DNA of 32,104 nucleotides from Candidatus Kerfeldbacteria bacterium. GTDB lineage: Bacteria; Patescibacteriota; Patescibacteriia; Veblenbacterales; UBA10138. Location of the stretch: assembly GCA_016217875.1 (NCBI GenBank), contig JACRFN010000080.1, forward strand, positions 1-32,104. Direction: 5' to 3'. How positions within the stretch are numbered: position 1 is the first letter of the stretch; each line of letters begins with the position of its first letter. The notes beneath the pieces were generated by a model. It worked only from the letters and a program-made list of their open reading frames with translations, ran no database searches and was not told the origin of the DNA. Below are positions 9,256 through 32,104 of the stretch, piece after piece. Made by a program: the position numbers and the translations under genes.

Positions 9256-9257
9256 AA

Positions 9258-10022: not shown

Positions 10023-10060
10023 AAATAATTAGCCACTGGTTCCTAGCTATTAGCCAATAA

Positions 10061-11275: not shown

Positions 11276-11281
11276 AAACGG

Positions 11282-12001: not shown

Positions 12002-12004
12002 AAT

Positions 12005-14153: not shown

Positions 14154-14163
14154 GCCGCCGGTA

Positions 14164-14766: not shown

Positions 14767-14801
14767 AAAACAATAAATTAATAATAAATTTTAAGTAGAA
14801 G

Positions 14802-15236
14802 TCAGGGTTTAGATGGCCAATCTACCACCGTTATAGTCGGCAGTATGTCAGCCAGGGTATACCGGGCCAATAGTCCATACAGTTTGCTGTGCACTTTTTG
14901 ATAACCAGTTTTACGCTCGCAGGCCGCCTGGCGCTCGCAACAGCGACCGTCGTGAGTACAGCGTACCGGCTCTAGCTCACCCTCCAGCGCGCGCAGTACA
15001 TCGATGAGTTTAAGCTTACCAGCTGGCTGGGCCAAGGCGTAACCACCCACCTTACCTTGACGGCTGACCACCAGATGCCCGGCAAGCAACCGGCGGGCTA
15101 AACGTTCCAGGTACTTAAGCGGCAAGCGTCGCTCACTGGCTACCGTAGCCAGGCTGGCGTACTGCCCCTTGCGTAAACCGGCCAAATAACCCACCAAAAG
15201 CAAACCATAATCGCCGCGGGCTGAAAGTTTGAGCAT
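14802..15236 (-). CDS. Rrf2-family transcriptional regulator (IscR/SufR-like, Cys-rich cluster-binding region)
   Basis: 144 aa. N-terminal winged-helix MLKLSARGDYGLLLVGYLA...LKYLERLARRL, followed by CTHDGRCCERQAAC as candidate Fe-S ligands. Heads the sod-suf gene string. Confidence 0.8.
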   Translation of the reverse strand: MLKLSARGDYGLLLVGYLAGLRKGQYASLATVASERRLPLKYLERLARRLLAGHLVVSRQGKVGGYALAQPAGKLKLIDVLRALEGELEPVRCTHDGRCCERQAACERKTGYQKVHSKLYGLLARYTLADILPTITVVDWPSKP

Positions 15237-15901: not shown

Positions 15902-15931
15902 CATTTACCGATTCGCGCGAATCGGTAAATG
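15902..15931. promoter_or_regulatory. Perfect 30-nt palindrome P2, relative of P1
   Basis: catttaccgattcgc|gcgaatcggtaaatg: 15+15 nt, no mismatch. Starts 15 nt upstream of the ArsR-like ATG. Shares the outer arms CATTTACC/GGTAAATG and the centre TCGCGCGA with P1. The inner stem differs by two compensated pairs (CT..AG versus GA..TC). Confidence 0.7.
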
Positions 15932-15945: not shown

Positions 15946-16890
15946 TCAAAGGGTGGTGATGGGGCGGGATTGGGTAATGTAGAATTTACCGCTGGCTTGC
16001 GCCCACTCAATGTCGCAAGGAAAACCGTAATGTTTTTCAATGCCGAGGCAAATTTTGGCTAAGGCAATTATCTCCTTACCATTCAGCTTTTGTTTGGATT
16101 TTTTGTTGGCCGCCACTTTTTTCCAAACATTGCCTCCGGTGGATTTACCTTGCATGAATTTTACCTGCTCAGCTACGTTCACATCCATAAGCGTGAGGTG
16201 TTTCTTATCAATAACATAAGAGTCGGGCGTTATTTGTCCTGATACTATGGCTTCGCCCAAACCAAGCCCTGCCTCAATGATCATTTGATTCTTATCCTTA
16301 GTTACCGGATGCACAGTAAAAGCAATGCCGGCAATCTCGGACTGCACCATGGCCTGCACCACCACCGCCACTGAAACTTTGGCTTTGTGCATTTTTTTCT
16401 CGTGGCGGTAGAAAATAGCGCGCGGCGTGAAAAGCGAGGACCAGCAATCTTTAACGCGCTTCAATAAAGTCCTGTCAGTCGTATTCAAATAAGTTTCCAA
16501 CTCCCCTGCCCAACTTGCCTGGGTTGAGTCCTCGGCCGTGGCCGAAGAACGCACGGCCACATACTTGGCTTTAAGTTTTTTAAACTCGGCCGTTATCTCT
16601 TTAGCTAAATCTTTTGGCATACGGGTGTCGTGAATAAGGTCGCGAATCACCACTGAATACCTTTCCACTGAATTGATGTCTTTATATTCAACCTTTTTCA
16701 ACTGAGCCTCGATATCTACTTCCAAGTCAGTCTCGTGCAAAAATCTGTCAAAAGCACTGGCCAAAATGACAAACCCCGGCGGCACCGGAATGCCGGCTTG
16801 TGTCATCTCGCCCAAACTCGCCCCCTTGCCACCGGCCAAAGGCACATCTTTTTTAGAAATTTTACTGAATGACAAGATGTACTTTACCAT
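15946..16890 (-). CDS. Stand-alone PEP synthase / pyruvate phosphate dikinase N-terminal ATP-grasp domain protein (PPDK_N only)
   Basis: 314 aa. DVPLAGGKGASLGEMTQAGIPVPPGFVI, VAVRSSATAEDS and VAVVVQAMV, ending at the canonical domain end CDIEWAQASGKFYITQSRPITTL followed by a stop. There is no swivel or TIM-barrel domain, and only 58 nt remain before the next gene. Confidence 0.85.
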   Translation of the reverse strand: MVKYILSFSKISKKDVPLAGGKGASLGEMTQAGIPVPPGFVILASAFDRFLHETDLEVDIEAQLKKVEYKDINSVERYSVVIRDLIHDTRMPKDLAKEITAEFKKLKAKYVAVRSSATAEDSTQASWAGELETYLNTTDRTLLKRVKDCWSSLFTPRAIFYRHEKKMHKAKVSVAVVVQAMVQSEIAGIAFTVHPVTKDKNQMIIEAGLGLGEAIVSGQITPDSYVIDKKHLTLMDVNVAEQVKFMQGKSTGGNVWKKVAANKKSKQKLNGKEIIALAKICLGIEKHYGFPCDIEWAQASGKFYITQSRPITTL

Positions 16891-16899
16891 ATCAAGCTT

Positions 16900-16928
16900 A
16901 ATTTACCAGATATAACAAATATTGACAA
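16900..16928 (-). promoter_or_regulatory. Candidate promoter for the ATP-grasp gene (near-leaderless)
   Basis: Minus strand: TTGTCA (16928-16923), 17-nt spacer, TAAATT (16905-16900), then 9 nt to ATG 16890. No SD sequence is visible. Confidence 0.3.
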
Positions 16929-16970
16929 AAAATAAAACGACCAGAGGTGTTGTAATCACTTCTAGCCGTC
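16927..16970 (-). terminator. Intrinsic terminator after the M29-like gene
   Basis: Minus-strand RNA: a 12-bp stem with 1 mismatch and 2 G-U pairs (CGGCUAGAAGUG / CACCUCUGGUCG, plus-strand arms 16957-16968 and 16938-16949), a 7-nt loop, then UUUUAUUUUUU (complement of 16927-16937). Begins about 22 nt past the stop at 16992. Confidence 0.6.
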
Positions 16971-16991
16971 TGAATTTATATAGTTGAATAT

Positions 16992-18296
16992 TTAGTACTC
17001 CTGTGGCTCACCTTTTTCAATAAATTTAAACATTGAGCCATCATTCCGTTCGCATTCTACTGTGACTTCTCCACCCGAATTCAAGCCTATAACCATATCA
17101 CAATGGACTGTAGCGGAATTGAAATTCGGCGTTCCAGGCTCACGACCGAATGAACCATTACTTCCGACCGCAATATGGACTGTTCCATATTTCTTCTCTC
17201 CCTCGGAGGAGCCCCAATATTCACGCGGCTTGGCTTCCAGGGCTCGTCTATTTGTGCCTACACCAAATTCTGCTAAACGATAGGCATCGTTGTGTCTGTT
17301 ATTACCACTATCAAGATACGCGACCCAAAGTTTCTTGGCCTCGGTACTCCCTTCAACCCTTACCACCTCACCATTCTGGATAGTTAACCGAAGCGGCTGG
17401 CCCTTGTCCAAAATATCCTGATTAATGTTACCGCCACATGGCCCATCAACAATCAAAATACCATCTGACCCTTGCCAGTCGGGAGAACATGACCATTCGC
17501 CTATTGGGTAATTTGACAATTGGCCTGGTTTGTTAAGGCGACCATCCTCTAATTCCATATATTCAGGTCTAACCTTAAGCCATAGGTCAGTTCCTAGTTC
17601 GGTAGTTATGTGAACTCTATTCACATCACGCATCAATTTTTGTATCTTATCCGCACGTTCACGCAAAACCTCAACATTTTCCAGTACGGCACCTTTAGTC
17701 AGTATGTCGTAAGGGTTATGACCCTTGGTTATGGAAATGATTCGACTACGAGTAGACTTGGCTAACAATTTCATCTTTTTGTAGGAAGAGTCTGGCAAAC
17801 GACCGTTTAACTCCCGTAGCCTTTGTGGGGAAAGTCCAGACCATCCTTTATTGACGGTCTGGGTAAAAGTAGGTGAACTTAATATTTGCTCAATTACCGA
17901 ACGTTCGACTGCGTTACCCCTTATGGCTGTCCCGGTTTCCGATGAATGAGAACGGGACATTGAAGTAACTATAAGTACCGGACGATCCAACATCTTTTTA
18001 CCAATAGTCTCGCCTAGTGGAGTGGCAGACTTAGGTGAAGCCGGAATTACATATAATTCATAACCTCCAGCGGCACGTGGGTCTTGTGAAGTCCTCTGTT
18101 CAAGCTCTTGCTGTATTGACTCTATAAAAGATTGATTTAATTCCATGACCTTGGTATCTGTAACCACCAATAGACTCTCTTTGGTCGGCTGAAAATCAAA
18201 ACAATCAATAATATTCTTGGCAGCAAGCCTCAGGCGCTCTTTGTTTTCAAGCTCCGATGTTTGTTCGTTAGATAACGATTCTTTTCCTAAAGTCAT
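16992..18296 (-). CDS. M29-family (AmpS/PepS/aminopeptidase T-like) metallopeptidase homolog
   Basis: 434 aa from ATG 18296 (GGAGG 6 nt upstream); the track starts at TTG 18329. The C-terminal region LAEFGVGTNRRA...EKKYGTVHIAVGSN...NSATVHCDMVI matches the M29 metal-ligand pattern (E.G.GTN / GTVH.A.G / H.D). Confidence 0.6.
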   Translation of the reverse strand: MTLGKESLSNEQTSELENKERLRLAAKNIIDCFDFQPTKESLLVVTDTKVMELNQSFIESIQQELEQRTSQDPRAAGGYELYVIPASPKSATPLGETIGKKMLDRPVLIVTSMSRSHSSETGTAIRGNAVERSVIEQILSSPTFTQTVNKGWSGLSPQRLRELNGRLPDSSYKKMKLLAKSTRSRIISITKGHNPYDILTKGAVLENVEVLRERADKIQKLMRDVNRVHITTELGTDLWLKVRPEYMELEDGRLNKPGQLSNYPIGEWSCSPDWQGSDGILIVDGPCGGNINQDILDKGQPLRLTIQNGEVVRVEGSTEAKKLWVAYLDSGNNRHNDAYRLAEFGVGTNRRALEAKPREYWGSSEGEKKYGTVHIAVGSNGSFGREPGTPNFNSATVHCDMVIGLNSGGEVTVECERNDGSMFKFIEKGEPQEY

Positions 18297-18332
18297 AAAT
18301 TCCTCCAAATTATGCAATTTTGTTTTCAAAGT

Positions 18333-18361
18333 AGATTAACATAGGGGGTGGAAAAAGTCAA
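18333..18361 (-). promoter_or_regulatory. Candidate sigma70-type promoter upstream of the M29-like gene
   Basis: Minus strand: -35 TTGACT (18361-18356), 17-nt spacer, -10 TAATCT (18338-18333), about 37 nt upstream of ATG 18296. Confidence 0.4.
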
Positions 18362-18372
18362 AATAGTTATAT

Positions 18373-19209
18373 TTATAGTAGGCTTCGATTTATCCAAGCC
18401 GCTGTAGAAATTATCGGCCAAAACCAGTTGACGTTGTTGCGCGGCGAATCATCATAGAACGACCCTTCATCTAACATAGGACAACAAACTAGCGTCCAAC
18501 CACCTAAATAAACTAAACCTTTCAACCACGTGTTAGCAATCATACCTATGGAAGGAACAATGAGATTACAACCTTCCCACACCGCCCGCTCGTATTCTAT
18601 GTAATATTCTGTGACGTCATAACCCTTACCGCGTAGAAATTCAGCCGCCTCCTCGCAGTATTTGGCTATTTCTTCCAACAGACCAAATTCACCCACACGA
18701 CCACTAAGCCTTCTGGTACTGGCGACGCCGATTTTGGGGATATAACCTAAATCAGTAAGCCACCTAGCTGCTCGCTCTGCCTCAGCCTGCTTTTGCTCAA
18801 GTGTTAAAGAATTATAATTAGAAGGACTCGAAATAGTAAACCATTGCCTATCCTTAGCTATGGTAAGAGGCGTAAATTTGAACTTTGGCTCGGGTCGTCC
18901 CAACGCTTCCACATACACTTTGTGAGTATAAGAATCTTTTAGTTGCCCGCGAACAAAGCCTTCTACTCTACCTTCTTTGACTAAGTCAACAATAACGTGG
19001 CTGGCCTCGTCGTCGTCTTTGGTGGGCATGCAATTCAATCCTTCAATTTGGCAACCGACCACCGTCAAGTCAGTGTAATTTTGCGCCTGACGCAGACTGT
19101 CAACCACTACTGGCTCCGGCCGCCAGATACCAATAGCAATCCGACGCTGCTTTTGCTGCGCTTCTTTTAAAAACCGACTTTGAATTTCGCTAAGTTTATC
19201 ATCAGGCAT
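18373..19209 (-). CDS. Phosphate acetyl/butyryl-transferase (PTA_PTB)-family-like protein, paralog 2
   Basis: 278 aa from ATG 19209 (track: TTG 19215). LVKEGRVEGFVRGQLKDS resembles the Pta/Ptb G-x-ADG-x-V-x-G motif. IVPSIGMIANTWLKGLVYLGGWTLVCCPML resembles the C-terminal P-D/S-x-x-x-GN-x(n)-GP-x-L region. Clear paralog of 20527-21357. Confidence 0.45.
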   Translation of the reverse strand: MPDDKLSEIQSRFLKEAQQKQRRIAIGIWRPEPVVVDSLRQAQNYTDLTVVGCQIEGLNCMPTKDDDEASHVIVDLVKEGRVEGFVRGQLKDSYTHKVYVEALGRPEPKFKFTPLTIAKDRQWFTISSPSNYNSLTLEQKQAEAERAARWLTDLGYIPKIGVASTRRLSGRVGEFGLLEEIAKYCEEAAEFLRGKGYDVTEYYIEYERAVWEGCNLIVPSIGMIANTWLKGLVYLGGWTLVCCPMLDEGSFYDDSPRNNVNWFWPIISTAAWINRSLL

Positions 19210-19225
19210 AATCAACGGTGAATAG

Positions 19226-20524
19226 TTAACGTTTAGTTAATAATCTCACCTCACCTCTCTTAGCGTCAACCTCAACAAGATCACCATCCTTAAGCACCTT
19301 GGTAGCAACTTTAGTGCCAATAATGCAAGGTTTTTTCATCTCACGCGCCATGATACTCGCATGGCATGTTATACCGCCCTCATCAGTCACGAAAGCCGCG
19401 GCGCGTTTCATAGCTATAACAAATGATGGGAAGGTCATTTGGGTAACTAAGATATCACCTGTTTTTACCTTATCCAATTCGTTAACATACTTAACCACCT
19501 TAACAATACCGCGCAACTTACCAGGGTATGCTATCGTACCGCGCACCTTGGTGGTGGTAAGACTCATCTTGGGTAAAATCGGTTTACTAAAGAAGGCTAT
19601 ATTACCGCGCCAAGCCGCCGCTGTAAGATTGGATGAGTAAAAGTGGGGATTACCTGCCAATAAATCATGGATTGAACAATCCCTAAGTTTTTCAAAAGGA
19701 ATATTATATCTATCACCTACAGCGCGTATAACCGGCCTGGCCAAGAACATAAACTCATATAACACATCCGTCCGTAGAGTACGGAAATAGACAAGTTCCT
19801 GTACCACTTTGACTAAAGGGCGTAATGGCACTGGCACGTAAACTCTGGTTTGAATTGGCTTATTTTTTTGTCGTTTTAATTCCTCTCGCTTCTCTTTTAA
19901 ATCCTGCAAAGTAAACCCCGGCGAAAAACCGTCACGAGCTCTCATCCAACTGTATTTATTAAGAATGGTATACAAATCATTATTACGTCGTAGTGCCATC
20001 TCAAAAAGTGCGTACTTATTTTTCTTTATTGGGAAACTAATGTCACCAATGAATTTATCGATGTCGCCTTTAACATATTTTGGCACTTGACGTTTGAGCT
20101 CTTCAGTATAGATATCCTCGAACCCGTGAGCCAGCCAGATATATGACGTAATAGTAGTCAAAATCTTATACAATTCTGCTAGTTTATCTAACGAGTTAAC
20201 TCGAGCCCTTAAGAGCTTATTGATACGCATTTTGTTCTCACGGTAAAACGACTCACAGGAGCTAGAAACCTTAAAAATTGTGACGCCATGTCGTAGATTA
20301 TCACGCAGTTGGTCAGCAAAATCTTTATTTATATCCTGGCTTAACTGCCAACTGTGATTTTCAAATAGCCAAGCCTTCAACTCAGCATTAACTCCAGCCC
20401 ATTTCATGTACCGCCGTGTCATACCGTCCTTGAACAGCGACAGAATAAAGGCTCTAAAAGGACGCTCCATCCAAGGCGTCCAAGCGTAAGAAATTATATT
20501 TTTTTTAATTTCTGGCAAGGTCAT
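19226..20524 (-). CDS. Phosphohistidine swivel (PEP-utilising enzyme mobile) domain protein, paralog G
   Basis: 432 aa. C-terminus GTIAYPGKLRGIVKVV...GDILVTQMTFPSFVIAMKRAAAFVTDEGGITCHASIMAREMKKPCIIGTKVAT..GDLVEVDAKRGEV. N-domain is the most divergent of the set. Confidence 0.8.
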   Translation of the reverse strand: MTLPEIKKNIISYAWTPWMERPFRAFILSLFKDGMTRRYMKWAGVNAELKAWLFENHSWQLSQDINKDFADQLRDNLRHGVTIFKVSSSCESFYRENKMRINKLLRARVNSLDKLAELYKILTTITSYIWLAHGFEDIYTEELKRQVPKYVKGDIDKFIGDISFPIKKNKYALFEMALRRNNDLYTILNKYSWMRARDGFSPGFTLQDLKEKREELKRQKNKPIQTRVYVPVPLRPLVKVVQELVYFRTLRTDVLYEFMFLARPVIRAVGDRYNIPFEKLRDCSIHDLLAGNPHFYSSNLTAAAWRGNIAFFSKPILPKMSLTTTKVRGTIAYPGKLRGIVKVVKYVNELDKVKTGDILVTQMTFPSFVIAMKRAAAFVTDEGGITCHASIMAREMKKPCIIGTKVATKVLKDGDLVEVDAKRGEVRLLTKR

Positions 20525-20526
20525 GA

Positions 20527-21357
20527 TTATGACTTTTCTTTATTAACCATCGCCACGCAATGTACAATATGCCAAAAGAAATCTTTCTCATTACGACTGC
20601 CATCCTCATATGACACTCCTAAATCCAAATAAGGACAAGAAATGGTCTGCCATCCTCCTAGGTATACAAGCGCCCTGAATAACGCATTACCCACTAAACC
20701 AATTGACGGAATAATTAAATTGCTATGTTGCCAAACTGCCGTTTCGTATTCAAAAAAATATTCGGTTACATCATAACCACGCTTACGTAGGTAGATGGCT
20801 AGTTGTTTATTTGTCTCTGCTAAATCATCAAGCAATTTATACTTACCAACATGGCTCGTAGTACGCAGGCTGGACATCACACCAATTTTGGGAACGACTC
20901 CCAAATCTTCCTCCATATACTTAATAATCCTATCTACTTCATATTTCTTATCATCAATAGTCATGCCATGATAAATAGAACTGGTACTGGCCACAAAACA
21001 GTATTCTCCTTTCTTGAGCACTGCTGGACAGATTTTTCTATTACTTGGTAACGGCTCTTTGTTGAACTGGCGATGAAATTCATCAAGGGTAAAAGAGTCC
21101 TTTACTTGACCTCGCACTATACCGTCTACCTTTCCCTCTTTGAGGAGCCGGATGATAATTCTACTGGCTTCATCATCGTTTGGTTCAACAATATTCTCAA
21201 ACCCATCAACTTTAGCACCCACTATTACCAAATCGGCATACTCAGACGCTCTCTGTAGACTATCTAACGTTTCGGGAATAGGCCGTAAAATACCAATAGC
21301 TACCTTTCTTTTGGTAAGTTTGGCCTTATCAAGAAACGCTTGGGAAAGATCCAACAT
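20527..21357 (-). CDS. Phosphate acetyl/butyryl-transferase (PTA_PTB)-family-like protein, paralog 1
   Basis: 276 aa. Contains LLKEGKVDGIVRGQVKDS and IIPSIGLVGNALFRALVYLGGWQTISCPYL. Collinear with 18373-19209 (KVAIGILRP/RIAIGIWRP, DDEASR/DDEASH, YDVTEY). Confidence 0.45.
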   Translation of the reverse strand: MLDLSQAFLDKAKLTKRKVAIGILRPIPETLDSLQRASEYADLVIVGAKVDGFENIVEPNDDEASRIIIRLLKEGKVDGIVRGQVKDSFTLDEFHRQFNKEPLPSNRKICPAVLKKGEYCFVASTSSIYHGMTIDDKKYEVDRIIKYMEEDLGVVPKIGVMSSLRTTSHVGKYKLLDDLAETNKQLAIYLRKRGYDVTEYFFEYETAVWQHSNLIIPSIGLVGNALFRALVYLGGWQTISCPYLDLGVSYEDGSRNEKDFFWHIVHCVAMVNKEKS

Positions 21358-21368
21358 AAACTTATGAA

Positions 21369-22196
21369 TTAATCATTATATATAAAAATTGGCTCAGTAT
21401 AATAACGTATCTGGTTGTGTGATAAACGTTGCTCCAGCAATTTACGCAAGAATCTATTTTTTGTTGTGATACTGCGCCGGGAACGCACTATCTCGAGTGG
21501 TATGTCCAAACGTAATATTCTGCCCTCTATCGCATGTCTAGTTATACCACTAGGCATATAAATACCGAGTCTGACTGCTTTAATTACATCAATTTCTCTA
21601 AACGGCATAAAAACAAAAAGCGGGCGCGCCTCAGGGTATTCACGACGCAACTCTTTGTAATCAATACCCAACACTCGGAAAAATTTATAACGTCCTTTAT
21701 AAACCTTAACCGCCTTATCAAGCGCCTGGATTTGCCTAGTAAAATCCCGACCAGCGTCTATACACCACGTCGTACGGCCGTCAACAACATAAAGCACTAT
21801 AGCGCGCCGCTTAAGCAGCCGGCGGGCCTTAAGTAGGGTGGTGGCATAAACTTTGGCACCTGTCGCACGCCGTAAGGCCGAAAAAAGCCTACGCCCACCA
21901 GACAAACCGGTTACCAAATGATTCCAGGTCATAAGCCTAACTTCAGTACCGCCATACCTCACTATCTGAACCGGTATCTCTTGGTAGCCTAGTTGTTTGA
22001 AAACCGTCGTGCGGTTGGCACCATCCAGCACTATGTACTTTTTGCCCCCAGCCGTAGGTGCCACCATGGGAGGATTGGTAAAAACCTCGGCTCGCGATAT
22101 GATGCGCTTAAGCTTAGCAATGCGCGCCGAATCAACCTCCTCATGAAGAAGTAACCTATCAAGCTCAACAAACTTTATTGTCGGTAGATTATTCAT
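21369..22196 (-). CDS. ParB/Srx-fold domain protein (SerK-like kinase architecture)
   Basis: 275 aa. The N-terminal FVELDRLLLHEE...KYIVLDGANRTTVFKQLGY fits the ParB/sulfiredoxin fold (DG-x-x-R box, here DGANR). The C-terminal VFMPFREIDVIKAVRLGIYMPSGITRH resembles, from memory, the archaeal serine kinase SerK C-domain. Confidence 0.5.
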   Translation of the reverse strand: MNNLPTIKFVELDRLLLHEEVDSARIAKLKRIISRAEVFTNPPMVAPTAGGKKYIVLDGANRTTVFKQLGYQEIPVQIVRYGGTEVRLMTWNHLVTGLSGGRRLFSALRRATGAKVYATTLLKARRLLKRRAIVLYVVDGRTTWCIDAGRDFTRQIQALDKAVKVYKGRYKFFRVLGIDYKELRREYPEARPLFVFMPFREIDVIKAVRLGIYMPSGITRHAIEGRILRLDIPLEIVRSRRSITTKNRFLRKLLEQRLSHNQIRYYTEPIFIYND

Positions 22197-22223
22197 TGCC
22201 TAATTATGATTTATTGATAAGTC

Positions 22224-23237
22224 CTAGCCCTCTATATTATCCCCTTCTCCGGGAAATTTAACCCTTTTATATTCAACAGACCATTGTTTAGACCCTCTAT
22301 CATATGTATAACACGCATACTCGCCGGGTAGCGGATAAGGATCCTTGGCGCCAACCTCCTTTTTCTTTTGCCACAATGGACCACTGTGAGTCACAGCCAC
22401 AACTACCACCTTACGGTCACCTATCTTTTCTTTGGGTAAGGTACTAACAATTTCCTCAAGCGCCTTATCAGAACGACGCGCTACATCAACAGGAGTGTCA
22501 TATGGCTTATCTGGGACAGGTGTGTCGTCTGTAGCACCTAAGACACCAGTACGCTGTTCAGCCTGTGTAAGTTCGGCTGCCCAAATATGCATTAATTCCT
22601 TACCACCCTTTAGACTTTTGGTACTTTCACCAGTTCTTTCATTAACCACCTTACGTAGTTCAACCAACAATGACTTTGGTACATCAAGGTCACCCAACTC
22701 CTTATGCGGTTCTAAACGTAACGAAATTATGTCACGATTCGACGCCGATCGTTCACCTTCTTCTATCAATCTATCGAAACGGGCAGTAGCTATATCAATG
22801 GTATACTCCGAGCGCGGCTGTCCGCTTCCTACCCATACCACAGCTGCCTTGTCGCCGGCATTTTGGTAAAGCTCCTCAGCCAAAGCCACGGCCCGAAGCG
22901 TCCCCCGTGGCGATAGTGATTTTTCAATAAAATCGTCCACCTTAAGTTCGGCGCGTCCATGGCTTTCTGGTTTACGCTTTAAATAACCGCCTTTTTCCTC
23001 CCAACGCTCAATATCAGCAAAAACATTAGCCAAAGCTTGCTCTTGCTGTAAAATTTTAGCTGTCTGTAGCTGACTAACGCCTTGCTCAAGAAGCTTTTGA
23101 ATTTCAGTTCTAAGTTTAGTCCGCGCCTCAGCATAACGCTGAATTTCTTCCGGCCCCCTCAGCTCGGATTTATCCATATGACGGATTTCACGGATCTCTG
23201 ATAAATCTATTTCTGGGGGTACCTCTTTTTTAAGCAT
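22224..23237 (-). CDS. Hypothetical protein, weak histidine-phosphatase (PGM-like) superfamily features
   Basis: 337 aa. IREIRHMDKSE (RH), SLSPRGTLRAVALAEEL (L-S/T-x-x-G-x-x-Q/R-A motif), GQPRSEYT and VVVAVTHSGPLW (second His) occur in the order expected for branch-1 histidine phosphatases. However, about 85 aa of charged, coiled-coil-like insert separate RH from LSPRG. Confidence 0.3.
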   Translation of the reverse strand: MLKKEVPPEIDLSEIREIRHMDKSELRGPEEIQRYAEARTKLRTEIQKLLEQGVSQLQTAKILQQEQALANVFADIERWEEKGGYLKRKPESHGRAELKVDDFIEKSLSPRGTLRAVALAEELYQNAGDKAAVVWVGSGQPRSEYTIDIATARFDRLIEEGERSASNRDIISLRLEPHKELGDLDVPKSLLVELRKVVNERTGESTKSLKGGKELMHIWAAELTQAEQRTGVLGATDDTPVPDKPYDTPVDVARRSDKALEEIVSTLPKEKIGDRKVVVVAVTHSGPLWQKKKEVGAKDPYPLPGEYACYTYDRGSKQWSVEYKRVKFPGEGDNIEG

Positions 23238-23256
23238 AAGCGTTATAGACTAGCGA

Positions 23257-24786: not shown

Positions 24787-24828
24787 ATACTATACAATAT
24801 AACTCAATGTTTAAGTTGGCCGTGAACA

Positions 24829-26241
24829 CTATAGTTTTCTCACCTTTCCCTGCCTTAAGTCAAGTTCTACCTTATCCCCTGTTTTTAAAATTTTGCTGGC
24901 TGTTTTAGTGCCAATTATGCACGTAACGCCTAACTCGCGTGCGATAATGGCTGCATGGGAAGTAATGCCACCCTCATCTGTAACAATGGCAGACGCCCGA
25001 CGCATAATAGTAACGAAATCCGGCCTGGTCATGGTAGTTACTAAAATGCGTCCGGTTTTGAAGTTATCACGGTGCGGATCAAGTACTACCTGAACCACAC
25101 CTTTAAGTCTGCTCACCGGAGCCGAGGCTACCTGGCCTTTTATCTCGCTCCCCTGCTTTTTGAATATGGCCCGCCACAACCGCCCAGCAGATACGCCGGT
25201 AATAAACTCGTCGCGTACTCCATTATGTTCCCTAACAACTACATAAACGGAAAACTTCCTCCGCGCGGCGAGTGCTGACATTGTGGGTAGTACTCCGCGC
25301 TTTAATCCGGCTACAGCTTCCTCAGTTGTCATATACTTTACTTGCCACAGCGGACGCGATAGCCTGCGAGCTATAGCACGTGCATACGCTTCCAAGTACC
25401 AATTAACAATAAGCGCCGTGTGCTTACGCTGGTCTATCCAACCAGCCCACCAGCAAAGCAACCTAAATGCCGCGCGTAGATCGGTTGACAACTTATACTG
25501 CTGAAGTACCATTGACCGAAGCCCGGCTGCTCGTCTTACTTTCGTGCCTAAACTCCTCAACTCCTGTTGTAACTCACGCTTAGATTTATTTTGGCATAAG
25601 TGTCGCAACTGTTGCCACACAGTACCCGAATTAAACGGGCGGCCCTCTCGGTAGTTCGATAACAGCCAAAGGTAGTGATTTGCGAATGATGCTATTCGTT
25701 CTTTAAACTCAGACGACACCTTATGTAAAGATGCAGTCTTTCTCACCGAGCCGTACCCACGAATAGCTAACCTTAATAGCGCTTGATGCTGTTCCTCCAT
25801 AAAGCTAAGCTGCTTGGGCGCAGATAAGGCAATAGCGATATCGTTCAACTGTTCAGTAGTAAGTTTGGGTAGTTCGCGTTTTAACAAACCCGGCAGCTCT
25901 TTAGTACCAAAAACGTCAGAGCTTTCCTGAACCCAGGTATATCGCCAGTGATCACGTACTAAATCACTGAAATGCTTAAATGAATGTGCCAGTTCAAAAT
26001 TTTTTAACTTGGGCGCAATCTGCACAAAAGCCCTACCCCACCGTTCTATGGCCGTAGCTACCCTCTTCCAGGCGTTGTACCTGCTAGTTTGATATGACCA
26101 GTTTTGGTTTGAGCGCCGTAGCACGTGATGCCAGACCTTCAGCTTTTGGCTCTCCGGAGTTTCCTCGTAGACAAAATCCTTTTTGAAAAAACAAAAGATG
26201 ATATTGGGTAGCTTAGGATGCCAATATCGTGACTGTTCCAC
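24829..26241 (-). CDS. Phosphohistidine swivel domain protein, paralog E
   Basis: 470 aa from a GTG start. C-terminus GQVASAPVSRLKGVVQVV...GRILVTTMTRPDFVTIMRRASAIVTDEGGITSHAAIIARELGVTCIIGTKTAS..GDKVELDLRQG. N-domain motifs HYLWLLSNY and GWIDQRK. Confidence 0.85.
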   Translation of the reverse strand: MEQSRYWHPKLPNIIFCFFKKDFVYEETPESQKLKVWHHVLRRSNQNWSYQTSRYNAWKRVATAIERWGRAFVQIAPKLKNFELAHSFKHFSDLVRDHWRYTWVQESSDVFGTKELPGLLKRELPKLTTEQLNDIAIALSAPKQLSFMEEQHQALLRLAIRGYGSVRKTASLHKVSSEFKERIASFANHYLWLLSNYREGRPFNSGTVWQQLRHLCQNKSKRELQQELRSLGTKVRRAAGLRSMVLQQYKLSTDLRAAFRLLCWWAGWIDQRKHTALIVNWYLEAYARAIARRLSRPLWQVKYMTTEEAVAGLKRGVLPTMSALAARRKFSVYVVVREHNGVRDEFITGVSAGRLWRAIFKKQGSEIKGQVASAPVSRLKGVVQVVLDPHRDNFKTGRILVTTMTRPDFVTIMRRASAIVTDEGGITSHAAIIARELGVTCIIGTKTASKILKTGDKVELDLRQGKVRKL

Positions 26242-26336
26242 AAATTACCGCATCCACTGACAAAAAAGCGGCACACCAGGACACCCCTCACTCCACCAAG
26301 TATCCCGTTTCACGCTTTTTACCAATTCTGTAACTT

Positions 26337-27785
26337 TCATAGCTTTGTCACCAACCCTTTTATAGCATCCACCCTTACCCTATCCCCTGTTCTTAGTACC
26401 TGGGTGGCTATTTCGGTACCCACCACACAAGGAATACCGAGCTCGCGTGAAACTATAGCGGCGTGCGAAGTAATTCCACCAACATCAGTTACCACAGCCG
26501 CTGCCTTACGCATAGCCACAATAAAATCAGGTGAAGTCATAGTGGTGACTAAAATATCACCTGACTTCATTTTACCCGCCTCTTTAGGTGAAAGAATAAT
26601 ACTAACACGGCCCACCACCAGACCAGAGCTTACTACCTGTCCCCTAAGCTCAATTTCCTTTGCCGACCTGGTCTTGACTTGATACTTATCAAATATTATG
26701 CGAGCCTTATCCCCAAAAACATAGCGAGTCGGCTTCTTAGGGTCCCATATGACCACAAAATAACGTTTCCGCTGTGTTATTTCACTTACAGATACCTTAA
26801 TTTTGTTTTGCGCTAACTGAATAACATCGCGGAACGTATAATAATGCAAGTCACCAAAATTAACTTTATACCTTCTGGACAACTCCCGTAAAATGACGTC
26901 AATAACATGATTGGCTTGAAAAATGTAAGATTTTCTACTGTCTTGCCACCAAATGCAAAATGCCAGTCTTCGCGCGATTTTGAGGGTTGTTTTGCCTAGA
27001 CTCAATTTTTTTACCAACCCTTCTTTAGCCAGCCGGGAGGAACGAATTGAACCGGCAACACTTCGTAACTTACGACGTGCCTCTTCTTGGCGAGACAGAC
27101 CCAAGAGCCGCTTTTTAAAATACGATAGCGGCAGCACGCGCGTATTGTGATAGCTATTCAGCAACCAATAGTACCGCTGTTGGTGTTCTATCAGCTTACG
27201 TGCTAGAAGCCGCTTATCCTTAATTGCCCGTAAGCGCCATAAATCGCATTCCTCTTGTTGGTAAAATGACAATTGTTCAGGCGCCGACAACTTTTCTATA
27301 ATAGCTACTTCATCCTGCTGACGGACTAATTTACGTTCAATGCCTTTTTTAAGCAACAATTCGCCTCCAAAACTGGCTATCTCAGGAAGCAGCCCTACCC
27401 CCCAAAACCTGCGACTGTAAAAATTGTACCAATTATAAACGGTGGAATATAACTTCTGATTCGTAAGTGACCTAAGATAAGACGGCTGTAGGCGACTATT
27501 TAAAGAAACAAAATTTTTTACAATACTTTGCCACACTTGATATGACTTTCTAAACGCTACATCATGTAATATAAACCGTGTAAATACCTTTTCCGCGTGA
27601 GAATACAAATCACTGTGATCAGTAAGGTAAGTAAATCTGTCACTAACATACGATATTAGGCTCAACGGCCAGCCTGGGGAAAATAGCGCCCTATTAGCCG
27701 ACAGTCCTTCGTACCAAGGGTCGGGATATATGGGCCGGCCGTCTATCGGCCCCCAGCGCCATAATTTTCTTTTGGGATTAATCAT
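26337..27785 (-). CDS. Phosphohistidine swivel domain protein, paralog D
   Basis: 482 aa. C-terminus GQVVSSGLVVGRVSII...GDILVTTMTSPDFIVAMRKAAAVVTDVGGITSHAAIVSRELGIPCVVGTEIAT..GDRVRVDAIKG. N-domain motifs QQRYYWLLNSY and WWQDSRK. 8-nt ATGATTAA overlap with the HAD-like stop. Confidence 0.85.
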   Translation of the reverse strand: MINPKRKLWRWGPIDGRPIYPDPWYEGLSANRALFSPGWPLSLISYVSDRFTYLTDHSDLYSHAEKVFTRFILHDVAFRKSYQVWQSIVKNFVSLNSRLQPSYLRSLTNQKLYSTVYNWYNFYSRRFWGVGLLPEIASFGGELLLKKGIERKLVRQQDEVAIIEKLSAPEQLSFYQQEECDLWRLRAIKDKRLLARKLIEHQQRYYWLLNSYHNTRVLPLSYFKKRLLGLSRQEEARRKLRSVAGSIRSSRLAKEGLVKKLSLGKTTLKIARRLAFCIWWQDSRKSYIFQANHVIDVILRELSRRYKVNFGDLHYYTFRDVIQLAQNKIKVSVSEITQRKRYFVVIWDPKKPTRYVFGDKARIIFDKYQVKTRSAKEIELRGQVVSSGLVVGRVSIILSPKEAGKMKSGDILVTTMTSPDFIVAMRKAAAVVTDVGGITSHAAIVSRELGIPCVVGTEIATQVLRTGDRVRVDAIKGLVTKL

Positions 27786-28428
27786 GGTGATTCAATAAAT
27801 ACTCCTCACTATCCCTCAATTGCCCCAGATCACCTATTTTATAATAATCATCAGAAATCTTCTCGAGTGGACTATTATTATTACTTAAATTATAAACTCT
27901 AAACTTAAATTTAGCTGATAGATTTAAGCACTTCCTAGCGGCCTTTATAAAAAACTGGCAATTAGCTGACTTGTCGTCAGTATAAACTACGGCATCAAAT
28001 CCTTGCTTTATTTTTTTACTAATTAAATCAACCAACATGGCTTTTGTTTTCACATTGGTATTGCCATAATCAAAAGTGCTGCAAATTTCCGCAATGTATG
28101 GCCTGACATCAAAGCCGTATTTGTTTTGTAATTGTACTGCCCGCCAATCTATTTGTTCTTTATTACCGGTAGTAAATACTCCATTATTTTTTGTCCAACT
28201 TAATACTTCCTTAAAACCGTCGGCAATCGATAAATTATATAAGCCTTCTTTATAAGGCTTCTCATAAGCTAACTCATACTCTAAAGGTGTCACGCTAACC
28301 AGTGGCTTTTGGTACAAATTAATAACATAATCATCATAAGTATCAAAACCAGATAATTTTTTGTTCCACTTTTCAATAAAAAGAGTATCGGCTAGATCCC
28401 AGAGATAAAAAATTTTAATAATAGGCAT
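27778..28428 (-). CDS. HAD-superfamily-like hydrolase with atypical motif I
   Basis: 216 aa. IFYLWDLADTLF (motif I-like, DLADT instead of DxDxT), GVFTTGNKE (motif II Thr), and a later Lys plus VVYTDDKSAN (motif IV DD). Confidence 0.45.
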   Translation of the reverse strand: MPIIKIFYLWDLADTLFIEKWNKKLSGFDTYDDYVINLYQKPLVSVTPLEYELAYEKPYKEGLYNLSIADGFKEVLSWTKNNGVFTTGNKEQIDWRAVQLQNKYGFDVRPYIAEICSTFDYGNTNVKTKAMLVDLISKKIKQGFDAVVYTDDKSANCQFFIKAARKCLNLSAKFKFRVYNLSNNNSPLEKISDDYYKIGDLGQLRDSEEYLLNHHD

Positions 28429-28429
28429 A

Positions 28430-29866
28430 TTAATTATGCTTTAATACCGTCACTACCCCATGATTAGCATTAACTTCCACATAGTCACCGTTCTTCAAAG
28501 CTTTAGTGGCAATTTTTGTACCAATAATGCAAGGAATGGCTAACTCGCGGCTAATAATAGCTGCGTGACAAGTAACACCGCCCTCATCAGTCACAATCGC
28601 CGCGGCTTTTTTCATAGCTGACAAATATTCCGGGCGTGTCATAGAAGCAACCATAATATCTCCTTGTTTGATGGCGGCGATGTCTTTTAAGAATCTACAA
28701 ATTTTTACCACGCCCATGACTCGCCCACTGTTGGCTACCATACCCTCTATAGTCAAAACCACTGAATCTATACGTGCTCTAACTGAATGATAAAATTTTT
28801 CTAACAATTTAAATTCATGACCGCTTACTAAAATTTCCTTTTTGTAACTAATCCAATCAAAACAACCCTGGCGCCGCTCAACTAAAATCGGCCGGAGTTT
28901 TTTCAGCTCACTCAAATCCTTCAGCTTTAATAATTCAAAAGCTGCCAGGTACTGAAGATTAACTACTGGCATTGATAACCGCCGACTAATCTCGTTAATT
29001 ATTATCTGAGTATGATAAATTGCTTTAAAAATATTAACCTTTCTTTGGTCTTGCCAGTCGGCTACCTCCACTATTAATTTGACGCATTTATTTAACTGCT
29101 TATCTCGGCGCGACAAAAAATTATTTACTGTTGGTTTAAGAATTTTCTTTTGCTTGGATAACTGCCTAAGTCGGTAAAGTAAATACTTAGCATCAACCGT
29201 CTTTGAGCCAGTGTAATTGGTTCTAAACCAATAATATTTACTAACATGCTGTTCCAACCGCTGTTCTAAAAGCTTTCCCTTGAATCTACCTAATCTTTTT
29301 AGCTCAACCTCTTCCCGATTTATAAACGATGGTTTATAAAAATTCGCCAAACCTTGCATCTTTTTATTAACCTCAGCTGTTGAGTATTGTTTTTCTAAAT
29401 ATTTTTTTAAATCAGTTTCTAAACCAATACTGACAATTTCAATGACGTGTGATAAATCGATTGATTCCATCAAACTATGTCCAGCCTTGATAAACCAACT
29501 CAACAGCTGCTGATCACTAAGATTTTTTATGTCGGATGATCTTATTATTTCAAACCAGGGTTCATAAGCGCTAAATATTCTATTGTACTGCCGCCTAATT
29601 TTAATTAAATAGGAAAAACTATCATACATCCGTCGTTTCATGATACGCCATAGTTTAGCAAAATCAGCTGCATCATAACTCCCTTCGGCGTAATTATTTT
29701 TGTAATAAAACAAATAGGGCGAATAATTGAAACCCAAATACTTTTTCATGCGATACCCGCTGGCCGCAGCGGTCGTCAAATATAAAGGCACGGCATTAAG
29801 CCCTTGAGTTAACCAGGATTTTTTAAATAACTTTTTAAAAAAATCTATTCTCGTCTTTGAGTTCAT
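28430..29866 (-). CDS. Phosphohistidine swivel domain protein, paralog C
   Basis: 478 aa. C-terminus GMVANSGRVMGVVKIC...GDIMVASMTRPEYLSAMKKAAAIVTDEGGVTCHAAIISRELAIPCIIGTKIAT..GDYVEVNANHGVVTVLK. N-domain motifs KYYWFRTNY and DWQDQRK. AT-rich gene. Confidence 0.85.
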   Translation of the reverse strand: MNSKTRIDFFKKLFKKSWLTQGLNAVPLYLTTAAASGYRMKKYLGFNYSPYLFYYKNNYAEGSYDAADFAKLWRIMKRRMYDSFSYLIKIRRQYNRIFSAYEPWFEIIRSSDIKNLSDQQLLSWFIKAGHSLMESIDLSHVIEIVSIGLETDLKKYLEKQYSTAEVNKKMQGLANFYKPSFINREEVELKRLGRFKGKLLEQRLEQHVSKYYWFRTNYTGSKTVDAKYLLYRLRQLSKQKKILKPTVNNFLSRRDKQLNKCVKLIVEVADWQDQRKVNIFKAIYHTQIIINEISRRLSMPVVNLQYLAAFELLKLKDLSELKKLRPILVERRQGCFDWISYKKEILVSGHEFKLLEKFYHSVRARIDSVVLTIEGMVANSGRVMGVVKICRFLKDIAAIKQGDIMVASMTRPEYLSAMKKAAAIVTDEGGVTCHAAIISRELAIPCIIGTKIATKALKNGDYVEVNANHGVVTVLKHN

Positions 29867-29867
29867 A

Positions 29868-31364
29868 CTATTTTCGCTTTAATACAGTCACTACCCCATG
29901 ATTAGCATTCACCTCCACAATATCACCATCTTTTAACACCTCGGTGGCAATCTTGGTACCTATAATACAGGGGATACCGAGTTCGCGTGAGACAATAGCG
30001 GCGTGGCAGGTTATTCCTCCTTCATTGGTCACAATGGCGGCCGCCTTTTTTATTCCCATAATGTAATCCGGCCGTGTCATAACCGCCACCAAAATATCGC
30101 CTGGTTGTATCTTTCCTACCTCACGTACTGAATTCAATACCTTTACCGGGCCGACAACACGACCAACCGAAGCTGATAAACCGCGAATATCGCGGACCTC
30201 GTCGCTGTGCTTTTGGGGGAACATCAATATACGCAAGCGCTCTACCTCACGCCTGGTAGCAACGTAGTAACCGCCGCGCCACACTACAAAAGCGCAGTTT
30301 TGTCTTCGTTGTCTGAGCTCTAACTGCGCAGGCTTCCCATGCTCAAACCAATACTCAACCTCACTGGGTAAGAGATACTTAGTAAACTCAGGGTCCAGCC
30401 CACGACGCCGCGCCATGGCGCCCAAGATTTGCGTACCCAAGTGGATGTTTAAAAAAGTTGATCTCTTGCGCTCATCCTGCCACCAAGTAAAGTCCTCAGA
30501 TATCTTGAGTAACGTACGTAAAAAGCGTGAAAATTTATACTTCTTAAAAATTACTGTCTTGCGCTTGGCATTGGTACGCGACGCATCACGAAGCTGTTGA
30601 TACTTAAGACGCAGATTGGCTCCCGACTGCTTCCATAACGTGATTTCCTTCCTGAAGTATCCAACGCTCAGTACCTTCGCTGTTATGTAGTTATTTTTAA
30701 TCCAAAAGTATCTCTGCTGATAGCGCTCAAGCTCCTGCCGGCTAACACGCGGTTTGAGCGCGAGCTTAAGCAGCTCCATTTCGGCCTCATTAATGAACGA
30801 CTGTCGTACCGGCGCCGTAGCAACGCTAAATATCTCGGTGAAATTGGACTCCTTGCTTAATTTACCGACTTCTTGGCGTAATATGGCGGCAATATGCTCG
30901 TCAGTGCCCAGGGCGAAATGATCAATGATGGCCGAAGAGGTAACCCGACGGCGAAATAACTGCCGGTAATGTAAATAGAAGGCTAGGAGTTCTTGGTCGC
31001 TCAAACGCTTCAAAATAGCGGCATTGAAAGTATTAAAGAAGTGCTGGAAAGCCATTTCATCCTTACGCCAGGCACGCAAAAGCTTGGTGCTGATACGAAG
31101 GTCGCCCTTGGCCAACCGCAACATTACCGTCGAGCCACGCTTGATGTCGGCCATATCAAGGTACCAATCACCCTTGCCACTCGGTGTAAAAAAGCTGACG
31201 CGGACATCGGCCTCGGTGCCTTTTGGCTTGCGCGGCTCACGGTCAATTTCCGCCTCGGCTACGGCGTACAAGTACATGGGCGAGCCGTCAAAACGCTGGT
31301 GGTACCACTGATGCCCCTTTGCCAGCTTTACGACTTTCCGCGGTATGGTAGAGGTTTGGGGCAT
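29868..31364 (-). CDS. Phosphohistidine swivel domain protein, paralog B
   Basis: 498 aa. C-terminus GLSASVGRVVGPVKVL...GDILVAVMTRPDYIMGIKKAAAIVTNEGGITCHAAIVSRELGIPCIIGTKIAT..GDIVEVNANHGVVTVLK. N-domain motifs QQRYFWIKNNY and WWQDERK. Confidence 0.85.
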   Translation of the reverse strand: MPQTSTIPRKVVKLAKGHQWYHQRFDGSPMYLYAVAEAEIDREPRKPKGTEADVRVSFFTPSGKGDWYLDMADIKRGSTVMLRLAKGDLRISTKLLRAWRKDEMAFQHFFNTFNAAILKRLSDQELLAFYLHYRQLFRRRVTSSAIIDHFALGTDEHIAAILRQEVGKLSKESNFTEIFSVATAPVRQSFINEAEMELLKLALKPRVSRQELERYQQRYFWIKNNYITAKVLSVGYFRKEITLWKQSGANLRLKYQQLRDASRTNAKRKTVIFKKYKFSRFLRTLLKISEDFTWWQDERKRSTFLNIHLGTQILGAMARRRGLDPEFTKYLLPSEVEYWFEHGKPAQLELRQRRQNCAFVVWRGGYYVATRREVERLRILMFPQKHSDEVRDIRGLSASVGRVVGPVKVLNSVREVGKIQPGDILVAVMTRPDYIMGIKKAAAIVTNEGGITCHAAIVSRELGIPCIIGTKIATEVLKDGDIVEVNANHGVVTVLKRK

Positions 31365-31366
31365 AA

Positions 31367-32104
31367 TTAAAGCTTTCTGATTACTCCTTTATTGGCGTCA
31401 ATCTCAACCATATCACCATCGCACAACGATGATATTAGATTCTTCACCCCCACCACACATGGTTTATTCAACTCGCGCGCCACGATGGCGGCATGGCTGG
31501 TTAAGCCGCCAGTTTCGGTCAGTATGGCCTTAGCCTGGCGCATGATGGGTAAATAATTAACGTTAGTAAATGGTGCCACCAAAATAGTACCTTTTTTAAA
31601 CTTTGGTATGTGTGAAATGTTGAGAATAATTGAAGCCTGGCCCACTACCTTACCAGGCGAAGCCGGCAAACCTTTTAACGATTTACTGACCATGTCTTTC
31701 AACAACGACAAATATTTTTTACCACCAGGCGATATTTGTCCATCAGTCATTAAATAAACGGCTGACTTGTCCCGCTGGGGCCAATTATCTATTTTATTTC
31801 CGGCTAATAAGCCAATTATTTCTGTCGGCCTCAATTGATAAATCTTTCTAAGCTGACTAAGACTATAACGCGGATACCGCCAAGCAATTAACCGCCTAAT
31901 AAATATGTTAACTTTATTAATCACTTCTTTTTTACGTTCATTATACAAGTACATCAGCTGATGAATATTTTTAATTTCCCGACGTAAACCCACCGGCAGC
32001 GCGGTGGTTATCTTGTTTATCTCACTTATTCGGCGGTGCGCTGCTTGCAACTGAGAACGATATTCATCCAACTCGCCTTTAATTTCCTTCAGCTGGGCTG
32101 TTAA
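31367..32104 (-). CDS. Phosphohistidine swivel domain protein, paralog A (5' end beyond the right window edge)
   Basis: The frame is open from 32104: ...LTAQLKEIKGELDEYRSQ precedes the track's TTG at 32071. C-terminus GLPASPGKVVGQASII...GTILVAPFTNVNYLPIMRQAKAILTETGGLTSHAAIVARELNKPCVVGVKNLI..GDMVEIDANKG. YLYNERKKEV aligns with the WWQDxRK motif of B-E. Confidence 0.8.
   Translation of the reverse strand, partial: LTAQLKEIKGELDEYRSQLQAAHRRISEINKITTALPVGLRREIKNIHQLMYLYNERKKEVINKVNIFIRRLIAWRYPRYSLSQLRKIYQLRPTEIIGLLAGNKIDNWPQRDKSAVYLMTDGQISPGGKKYLSLLKDMVSKSLKGLPASPGKVVGQASIILNISHIPKFKKGTILVAPFTNVNYLPIMRQAKAILTETGGLTSHAAIVARELNKPCVVGVKNLISSLCDGDMVEIDANKGVIRKL

Follow-up and report, generated by a model that had tools for sequence, protein, structure and literature searches.

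We analysed a 32,104-nt stretch of DNA from a Candidatus Kerfeldbacteria bacterium (contig JACRFN010000080.1, positions 1 to 32,104; hereafter "the window"), in which a single stand-alone ATP-grasp gene closes a cluster of genes for phosphohistidine "swivel" proteins. The system is probably a one-to-many dikinase of the rifampin phosphotransferase (RPH) type, in which one ATP-grasp subunit charges many swivel-containing modules, each of them serving an acceptor of its own. The arrangement is conserved in bacteria of the candidate phyla radiation (CPR) and in DPANN archaea, where it is sometimes fused in one giant protein. A split-dikinase logic had been put forward in an original prediction made from the sequence alone. 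Architecture, synteny and fusions support it, but the principle of a 1:1 split was already established (PMC12167813), and what is new is a one-to-many, modular, CPR/DPANN-wide version that comes with accessory proteins of phosphohydrolase-fold, phosphotransacetylase (PTA)-fold, SbnI-like and M29-like types.

An ATP-grasp subunit and its swivel paralogs

The minus strand carries all large open reading frames (ORFs) of the window, including every cluster gene described below. The cluster comprises 14 co-directional genes with intergenic gaps of -8 to 101 nt, namely one stand-alone ATP-grasp gene, at least seven swivel paralogs and six interleaved accessory genes. The coordinates and domain calls originally given for this inventory all hold, but the six accessory genes had been overlooked. 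The ATP-grasp gene (15946..16890), which is the terminal gene of the cluster, encodes a protein of 314 aa whose sole domain is PPDK_N (PF01326, E 1.8e-95, residues 17-313) and whose C-terminus reads ...YITQSRPITTL, directly followed by the stop codon; it had been described as a complete PPDK_N domain and nothing else, and so it is. The nucleotide-site motifs GGKG, VRSSATAED, ETYLN and DIEWA are intact, and the protein matches the structure of HpeI (9GOJ) with an E-value of 2.6e-52.

The swivel paralogs are lettered A to G. Paralog A (31367..32104; PF00391, E 6e-26) is partial, its N-terminus lying beyond the window edge, and what is visible is the end of an N-terminal domain and a swivel domain with the sequence GGLTSHAAI; since this gene is truncated, the array may be longer. 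The other six consist of a substrate domain followed by a swivel domain: B (29868..31364; 498 aa, RPH-type substrate domain, swivel His454, PF00391 E 1.1e-25), C (28430..29866; 478 aa, His434, E 7.2e-25), D (26337..27785; 482 aa, substrate domain from residue 1 to ~372, His441, E 5.2e-26), E (24829..26241; 470 aa, His429, E 5.5e-23), F (23257..24786; 509 aa, His467 within GALTCHAAI, E 1.4e-21) and G (19226..20524; 432 aa, with a shorter substrate domain, His388, E 2e-25). In all seven the swivel domain PF00391 is C-terminal and is the only Pfam domain above threshold (E 1e-21 to 5e-26), and all seven keep the sequence G(G/A)xT(C/S)HA(A/S)I with the carrier His, as had been claimed, together with T(D/N/E)xG(G/A)xT(C/S)H, the catalytic-His motif of two-component dikinases. 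The E-values of these domain matches are well outside anything that chance would give. The PEP/pyruvate TIM barrel (PF02896; PEP, phosphoenolpyruvate), whose absence from the window was also part of the original prediction, indeed matched none of the window's products.

This absence separates the cluster from PEP synthase and pyruvate phosphate dikinase (PpsA/PPDK). It shares with these enzymes the grasp and swivel domains, which are closest to archaeal PpsA (8a8e; E 1e-70 and 2e-46, respectively), whereas the TIM barrel PF02896 is nowhere in the cluster, and the order here is substrate domain, then swivel. Moreover, the grasp protein scores at most 338 bits against the NCBIfam PEP synthase/PPDK models, whose cut-offs are 739.75 bits (TIGR01418) and 598 bits (NF005057), and the paralogs score at most 126 bits against the same models, likewise under the cut-offs. 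Lacking the barrel and falling short of these cut-offs, the system is not a PEP synthase or a PPDK.

The N-terminal domains of the paralogs are RPH/HpeH-type substrate-binding domains. They are mutually homologous; Trp and Arg occupy invariant positions in all of them, and they share the motif W-Q-D-x-R-K, which is invariant and in paralog D corresponds to W280-Q281-D282-x-R284-K285. Paralogs E and F each match the N-domain hidden Markov model. When paralog D was modelled with AlphaFold2 from 45 sequences (pLDDT 93.1, pTM 0.91) and the model was compared with the PDB using Foldseek, the only full-length matches were to RPH (5fbt, 5fbu, 5fbs and 5hv1; E 7e-15, query-normalised TM-score 0.58-0.60, ~560 columns), and the remaining matches were confined to the swivel domain. 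For a profile comparison with hhalign, RPH-Lm (867 aa; R666, E667, K670 and H825 verified) was taken from a plasmid collection, and the family profile aligned with its residues 321-867, i.e. the rifampin (RIF)-binding and swivel region, with a probability of 99.6% and an E-value of 5e-23 over 447 columns, at an identity of just 16-21% between the paralog N-domains and the RIF-binding domain. Bridging the N-domain to RPH through a single-chain relative of 836 aa (L061) using phmmer did not succeed, as the middle domain did not align.

The second phosphotransfer of RPH needs Arg666 and Glu667, with Lys670 nearby (PMC4844700). In the hhalign pairing D282 stands opposite E667, K285 opposite K670 and Q281 opposite R666, and the invariant R284, which aligns with P669, lies three residues further along the same helix than the Arg666-paired Q281. 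Judged by this alignment, the site seems to be conserved in part in the paralog family. Compared with RPH itself (5FBS/5FBT/5HV1), then, the three domain types are the same and the acidic residue and the Lys align in register, whereas RPH unites its domains in one chain, has a single substrate domain and has its Arg666 out of register, the invariant Arg here being found at +3. Scores against the NCBIfam RPH model NF041857 (cut-off 999 bits) were 285 bits for the grasp protein and 52-62 bits for the paralogs, in the latter case over the swivel region only. Being split, with Arg666 out of register and the cut-offs missed, the window system is not a bona fide RPH.

Homology to the RIF-binding domain also means that the N-domains are not decayed ATP-grasp or TIM-barrel remnants, in keeping with the earlier view of them as substrate domains. 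A broader reading of this kind would hold that gene fission and duplication have left pseudogenes or decaying pieces of ppsA here, and it could appeal to the labels PEP synthase or PEP-utilizing enzyme that pipelines give to the proteins. The tests that were run refute it, and we give it practically no credence: the ORFs are intact, the His is invariant, the AlphaFold2 folds are of high confidence, and stand-alone grasp orthologs of 310-329 aa exist in many lineages. In addition, an exhaustive search with an N-domain-only profile returned a family of 4,197 clusters at 50% identity (2,553 of them at E <= 1e-10), with orthologs kept across both domains of life.

Arrays, fusions and module repertoire in other genomes

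Homologs of paralog D number in the thousands, are ~480 aa long, carry PF00391 only and are hosted by Patescibacteria and by DPANN archaea such as Woesearchaeota and Nanoarchaeota. In the source records they are named just "PEP-utilizing enzyme" or "phosphohistidine swiveling domain-containing protein", so that, as suspected from the sequence, annotation pipelines hide the logic of the system under such labels. We examined the neighbourhoods of a sample of about 20 arrays, gathered by similarity-based retrieval. A single PPDK_N-only gene (310-329 aa) adjoins an array of paralogs in eight independent loci, which is the co-occurrence that had been anticipated; the ratio of stand-alone grasp genes to paralogs is 1:7 or more in the window and 1:5 to 1:11 in the seven other loci. 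The latter belong to Patescibacteria (L001; 5 paralogs, PPDK_N-only gene of 322 aa), to an archaeon in which the array lies between Nop5 and fibrillarin (L003; 5 paralogs, 310 aa), to Nealsonbacteria (L005; about 11 paralogs, 329 aa), to a record titled "uncultured Gammaproteobacteria", an unverified label (L006; 10 paralogs, 313 aa), and to Buchananbacteria (L009; 6-7 paralogs, 315 aa), and two more were sampled independently via x216, an accessory protein described below (L093, with 8 paralogs and a gene of 311 aa, and L094, with at least 6 paralogs and a gene of 314 aa). Elsewhere there are a few 1:1 grasp-module pairs (L008, L013), and eight further arrays are truncated by locus or contig ends.

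The same partners also occur as Rosetta-stone fusions of 2-8 modules. A Woesearchaeota protein of 3,761 aa (L017, 2681-13966) begins with one grasp domain that is followed by eight swivel-containing modules, and there are shorter versions with a grasp and four modules (1,994 aa; L027, 6935-12919) or two modules (1,233 aa; L018, 7967-11668), as well as a protein of at least 2,937 aa with at least 8 modules whose N-terminus is off the locus (L082, 1-8814). These four loci contain no N bases. The grasp domain is N-terminal in the fusions and is usually the last gene in split arrays. About 17 of the best 150 N-domain matches are multi-module proteins; in one two-module fusion (P0052) a candidate epimerase domain (PF02350) was rejected, as its 26 bits are less than the 30.6-bit cut-off and it overlaps the swivel.

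Sequence identity sets the grasp subunits apart as well. The window grasp protein has an identity of 57-73% to other grasp domains that stand alone or are fused to modules, archaeal fusions included, but of just 37-46% to ~45 canonical PpsA-type grasp domains in the same scan, the exception among the array-linked grasps being the divergent archaeal protein of L003 (43% identity). On these identities the array-linked ATP-grasp is a dedicated lineage, separate from PpsA.

Within the window, mean identity among the paralogs is 17% for the N-domains vs 48% for the swivel domains, a difference that would be expected were the swivels constrained by a single shared docking partner and the substrate domains free to diverge. 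The N-domains of B, C, D and G have scores of 190-228 bits to other genomes vs at most 65 bits within their own array; for example, that of B has its best match in L009, at 198 bits vs 65 bits at home, and that of G in a Nanoarchaeia locus (L026), at 192 bits vs 25 bits. When 139 N-regions were clustered into orthogroups, a within-array duplicate was found only once among 113 modules in 20 arrays. The most widespread orthogroup is that of D (OG0, 13 loci), followed by those of B (OG1, 10 loci) and C (OG2, 7 loci). Such one-of-each arrays favour distinct acceptors over an amplification for dosage or a tandem duplication of recent date, and since each paralog belongs to a different conserved orthogroup, each most likely has a different cytosolic small molecule as its acceptor.

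The G+C content at third codon positions (GC3) changes abruptly between array genes that are only 1-2 nt apart (0.30 in x216, 0.36 in C and 0.56 in B, within 19226-31364), whereas it is uniform, 0.50-0.59, in the flanking SUF, superoxide dismutase (SOD) and Rrf2 genes; these jumps suggest a mosaic of modules with different histories. Module exchange, as suggested by this mosaic, would suit a battery for the inactivation of xenobiotics or antibiotics, in which each module is an RPH-like resistance kinase directed against a different toxin of the host or community. RPH is, after all, the closest solved structure, and rph-like genes were included among the resistance determinants in a survey of CPR genomes (PMC8651080). 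We nevertheless consider this explanation quite improbable: in bacteria and archaea alike the same orthogroups turn up one to an array, together with conserved accessory genes of metabolic appearance, which is more in line with a core function than with sporadic resistance, and the NCBIfam RPH models are missed widely and match the swivel only, with N-domains at the low identity to RPH given above.

Several observations concern the places in which arrays are found. In one Woesearchaeota-like lineage the whole array is situated between the Nop5 and fibrillarin genes (L003:9257-21431, L088:7936-21431), which are normally adjacent in archaea. Type IV secretion/conjugation-type genes (PrgI, TraC-like, TraG/DUF87/TrwB-like) flank two CPR arrays (L001:19887-21458, L093:1-2224), and genes for a small Pol-beta/MNT-like nucleotidyltransferase and a NYN protein lie between paralogs in others (L007:6753-7708, L005:13147-13716, L023:2249-2902), where they are probably toxin-antitoxin-type or selfish insertions. 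Arrays of the CPR/DPANN type are also present in L006, L014, L019, L031 and other TPA_asm records of metagenome-assembled genomes that are titled "uncultured Gammaproteobacteria bacterium", labels that look unreliable. Finally, a lone D-type paralog in L086 (8161-13525) sits, with 5-nt gaps on both sides, between UbiX/UbiD and the large and small subunits of AcnX, with a GHMP kinase and an AA_kinase nearby, a neighbourhood that we take to resemble the archaeal modified mevalonate-pathway cluster. This adjacency was not seen again in L003 or L085-L089, and a mevalonate-pathway link is hence a lead only; an isoprenoid link is possible.

Accessory genes and surroundings of the cluster

Two of the accessory genes encode proteins that resemble phosphohydrolases. 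The first, x216 (27778..28428), shares 8 nt with the start of paralog D and is a divergent HAD-fold protein that has no Pfam match and belongs to a family of 38 proteins found in CPR only. Its AlphaFold2 model (pLDDT 95.7) retrieved only HAD-superfamily enzymes in Foldseek, with 2g80 and 4dfd on top at a TM-score of ~0.5, and within HAD motifs I-IV the residues D11, T15, T86-T87-G88, K127 and D151 are invariant. The D+2 position is Ala, and as this replaces the general acid, phosphatase activity is not assured. Orthologs of x216 are located inside the arrays of L001, L085, L093 and L094. The second, x337 (22224..23237), is a divergent His_Phos_1-like protein with long insertions and the sequences EIRHM and VTHSG, whose PF00300 match (E 0.0033) is below the curated cut-off; its RH motif aligns with the His_Phos_1 proteins of L001, L005, L027 and L087, which are encoded by clearer His_Phos_1 genes in or beside those arrays. 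Other phosphohydrolase folds are found as well, namely HD in L005 and L094 and low-molecular-weight protein tyrosine phosphatase (LMW-PTP) in L003 and L087.

One may ask whether such enzymes belong to a protein phosphorelay, with Enzyme I-type swivel carriers, protein targets, and SixA-like His_Phos_1 and LMW-PTP proteins as resetting enzymes. The swivel domain is indeed common to Enzyme I, and His_Phos_1 and LMWPc proteins recur in the arrays. Yet genes of HPr-like or EIIA-like type are missing, as is a significant PEP-utilisers_N domain; when Enzyme I of the PEP-dependent phosphotransferase system (PTS) was tested for, the swivel region alone matched, and the sole PF05524 match was one of 13.5 bits on x337. 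In addition, the domain to which the N-domain is homologous binds a small molecule, and the N-domain seems to retain part of that domain's phosphotransfer site; we therefore regard a protein phosphorelay as very improbable.

The remaining four accessory genes have a more metabolic appearance. One (21369..22196) encodes an SbnI/SerK-like protein of the free-serine-kinase family with a ParB/Srx fold (NCBIfam SbnI, 1.5e-25), which matches 6nr6 (4e-16) and 5x0b (1e-8) in the PDB over its full length and has orthologs in the arrays of L009 and L085. Two others encode Mmp4/MtxX-like proteins with 42% identity to each other: protein a (20527..21357; TIGR03270 2e-17, PDB 9nzy 3e-6), which has a phosphate-acyltransferase-like fold and orthologs in L085 (373 bits) and L009, and protein b (18373..19215; TIGR03270 8e-13), which has its own distinct and closer ortholog in L085 (369 bits). 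This suggests that a and b are an old pair, and their products might form a heteromer. The paper describing the structure of MtxX/Mmp4 gives a fold and no function, and the methanogen MtxX is reported to adjoin undecaprenyl-PP synthase (PMC12978539), which bears on the possible isoprenoid link noted above. The last gene (16992..18329) encodes an M29-aminopeptidase-like protein (C-terminal half; PF02073 1.3e-8) with orthologs beside the L009 array (369 bits) and beside the fused gene of L018. The SbnI-like, the two Mmp4/MtxX-like and the M29-like genes recur together in L009 and L085 and constitute a CPR set, and the archaeal arrays have a shared accessory set of their own that includes PTA_PTB and Hexapep proteins. 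One may speculate that the accessory proteins of phosphohydrolase and PTA fold process the phospho-products downstream or reset the carriers.

Gene sets like these may also be viewed as parts of a biosynthetic line, in which the modules phosphorylate a carbonyl, hydroxyl or carboxyl oxygen for condensation or transfer, in the manner of PigC/RedH and with no stable phospho-products, and in which modules and accessory enzymes jointly build or remodel one complex product, e.g. an envelope or cofactor-like molecule. PigC, RedH and HapC have the same layout of grasp, substrate domain and swivel, their family can phosphorylate a substrate in order to activate it for condensation, and PigC/RedH appear among the NCBIfam matches. 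The multi-module megaproteins look like assembly lines, and genes of suitable types are recurrent: PTA_PTB/Mmp4-like in the window, L009, L085, L087 and L089, Hexapep in L007, L087 and L088, a methyltransferase in L088, a radical SAM protein in L087, and M20 and OTCase-like proteins in L023. We find such a line rather unlikely all the same, because CPR and DPANN arrays have the module orthogroups in common but not the accessory sets, because a carrier protein or an obvious scaffold gene is missing, and because scores against the PigC/RedH NCBIfam models (54-68 bits) are far under the cut-offs (1300-1350 bits). PigC, RedH and HapC themselves act as single chains and belong to the specialised metabolism of Proteobacteria and Actinobacteria.

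Beyond its genes the cluster displays few signals. A perfect 13-bp palindromic hairpin (15902..15931), located 15 nt beyond the ATP-grasp stop codon and followed by a 709-nt gap and then the Rrf2 gene, marks the probable end of the operon; it was the sole notable element in sigma-70 promoter and terminator scans, which otherwise gave counts at background level. A gathering-threshold Rfam scan of the window and five array loci returned no match, and so no riboswitch or RNA ligand clue, a tRNA search found none, PADLOC matched no known defence system, and none of the 14 cluster proteins has a convincing transmembrane segment. The remainder of the window (760-15236) encodes core functions of an anaerobe, i.e. 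PFOR alpha/beta-type subunits, acetate kinase, a PduL-type phosphotransacylase and a PfkB kinase, and further NifU, SufS/D/B/C, an Fe/Mn-SOD and the Rrf2 regulator. As listed, the ORF of SufB has 47 nt in common with SufC, probably as a result of an upstream GTG having been chosen as its start. Genes for nucleobase/nucleoside salvage are found near the ATP-grasp end of some arrays: in L093 (18058-20642) a phosphoribosyltransferase and a PNP_UDP_1 nucleoside phosphorylase adjoin the grasp gene, and in the window a phosphoribosyltransferase and a LOG-like protein (4620-5919) are encoded ~10 kb downstream of the ATP-grasp end.

Proposed mechanism and relation to known dikinases

The nearest precedents are the split dikinases HpeHI of Rhodococcus, CreHI of Corynebacterium and PpsAB of Thauera, in which a grasp subunit works with an RPH-like substrate/swivel subunit, a His-to-Gln exchange abolishes activity, and the two subunits associate only transiently; the presumed reaction converts ATP to AMP, Pi and a phospho-product via His~P (PMC12167813). 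As in the window, the ATP-grasp subunit is separate and its partner combines an RPH-type substrate domain with a C-terminal swivel His. All described cases, on the other hand, are 1:1 pairs that act on phenolics in aromatic catabolism and have substrate subunits of ~600 aa, whereas here one grasp gene accompanies 5-11 modules of ~430-510 aa, or is fused to 2-8 of them, in CPR and DPANN hosts and with no aromatic-catabolism genes nearby. At position -2 from the His the swivel here has retained Thr, as in PpsA, in place of the Met of HpeH. In its architecture the window system thus belongs with the two-component dikinases in every respect except the 1:1 stoichiometry, and literature searches found no description of such arrays in CPR/DPANN. 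The PTS, in which Enzyme I serves sugar-specific Enzymes II, is similar by functional analogy only, in that one component feeds phospho-His into many modules; it uses PEP as donor and has unrelated specificity components, and no HPr, EIIA or membrane component is present here.

By analogy with the mechanism of the family, the 314-aa ATP-grasp subunit would bind ATP, and the C-terminal swivel of each paralog would dock on it in trans, so that its His takes the beta-phosphate, with AMP and Pi released. The swivel would then return to its own N-terminal, RIF-binding-domain-homologous domain, where the conserved Asp282/Arg284/Lys285 site may help to pass the phosphoryl group to a bound, module-specific acceptor. 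Each paralog would in this way phosphorylate or activate a different cytosolic small molecule.

Several points weigh against a one-to-many dikinase of this type. RPH Arg666 stands opposite Gln281, and with R284 displaced by three residues the equivalence of the active sites is only partial. Four arrays (L015, L026, L085 and L089) are without an ATP-grasp gene within ~10 kb, so that the linkage of grasp and array is frequent and not obligatory. HpeH alone can shuttle phosphate between substrates without its ATP-grasp partner (PMC12167813), which makes ATP-independent roles of the modules conceivable. Paralogs E and F are without clear orthologs in a limited sample, and genes of phosphatase fold in the operon would create futile cycles unless their products act at other steps. 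Since the domain search, the homology to RPH and the co-occurrence all came out as predicted, the one-to-many interpretation is supported, with the four grasp-less arrays as a caveat.

More tentatively, the system may be a modular phosphorylation hub of CPR and DPANN organisms, in which one grasp, acting in trans or fused, charges a standard and non-redundant set of modules that trap or activate scavenged metabolites, in place of conventional kinases and with horizontal spread from one domain of life to the other. Cofactor precursors, nucleosides, sugars, prenols and carboxylates are possible, if equally tentative, candidates for these metabolites.

The dikinase paradigm would hereby be extended from one-to-one to one-to-many, with one nucleotide-binding domain for up to 8-11 phospho-His modules, both in trans and in cis. 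The findings speak against the labels ppsA and rph (resistance gene) for such genes when metabolism is reconstructed or resistomes are surveyed, and they provide a directly testable set of proteins for substrate discovery, consisting of one ATP-grasp subunit and orthogroups D, B and C. CPR and DPANN organisms make up a large share of microbial diversity and have tiny genomes with many apparent metabolic gaps. A system that occupies 15-20 kb in a genome of this kind, that bacteria and archaea have both conserved with a one-of-each set of modules, and that has been hidden under the labels PEP synthase and PEP-utilizing enzyme is a strong candidate for an overlooked core activity, and the hub, if it is true, would stand in for many of the kinases that these reduced genomes appear to lack.

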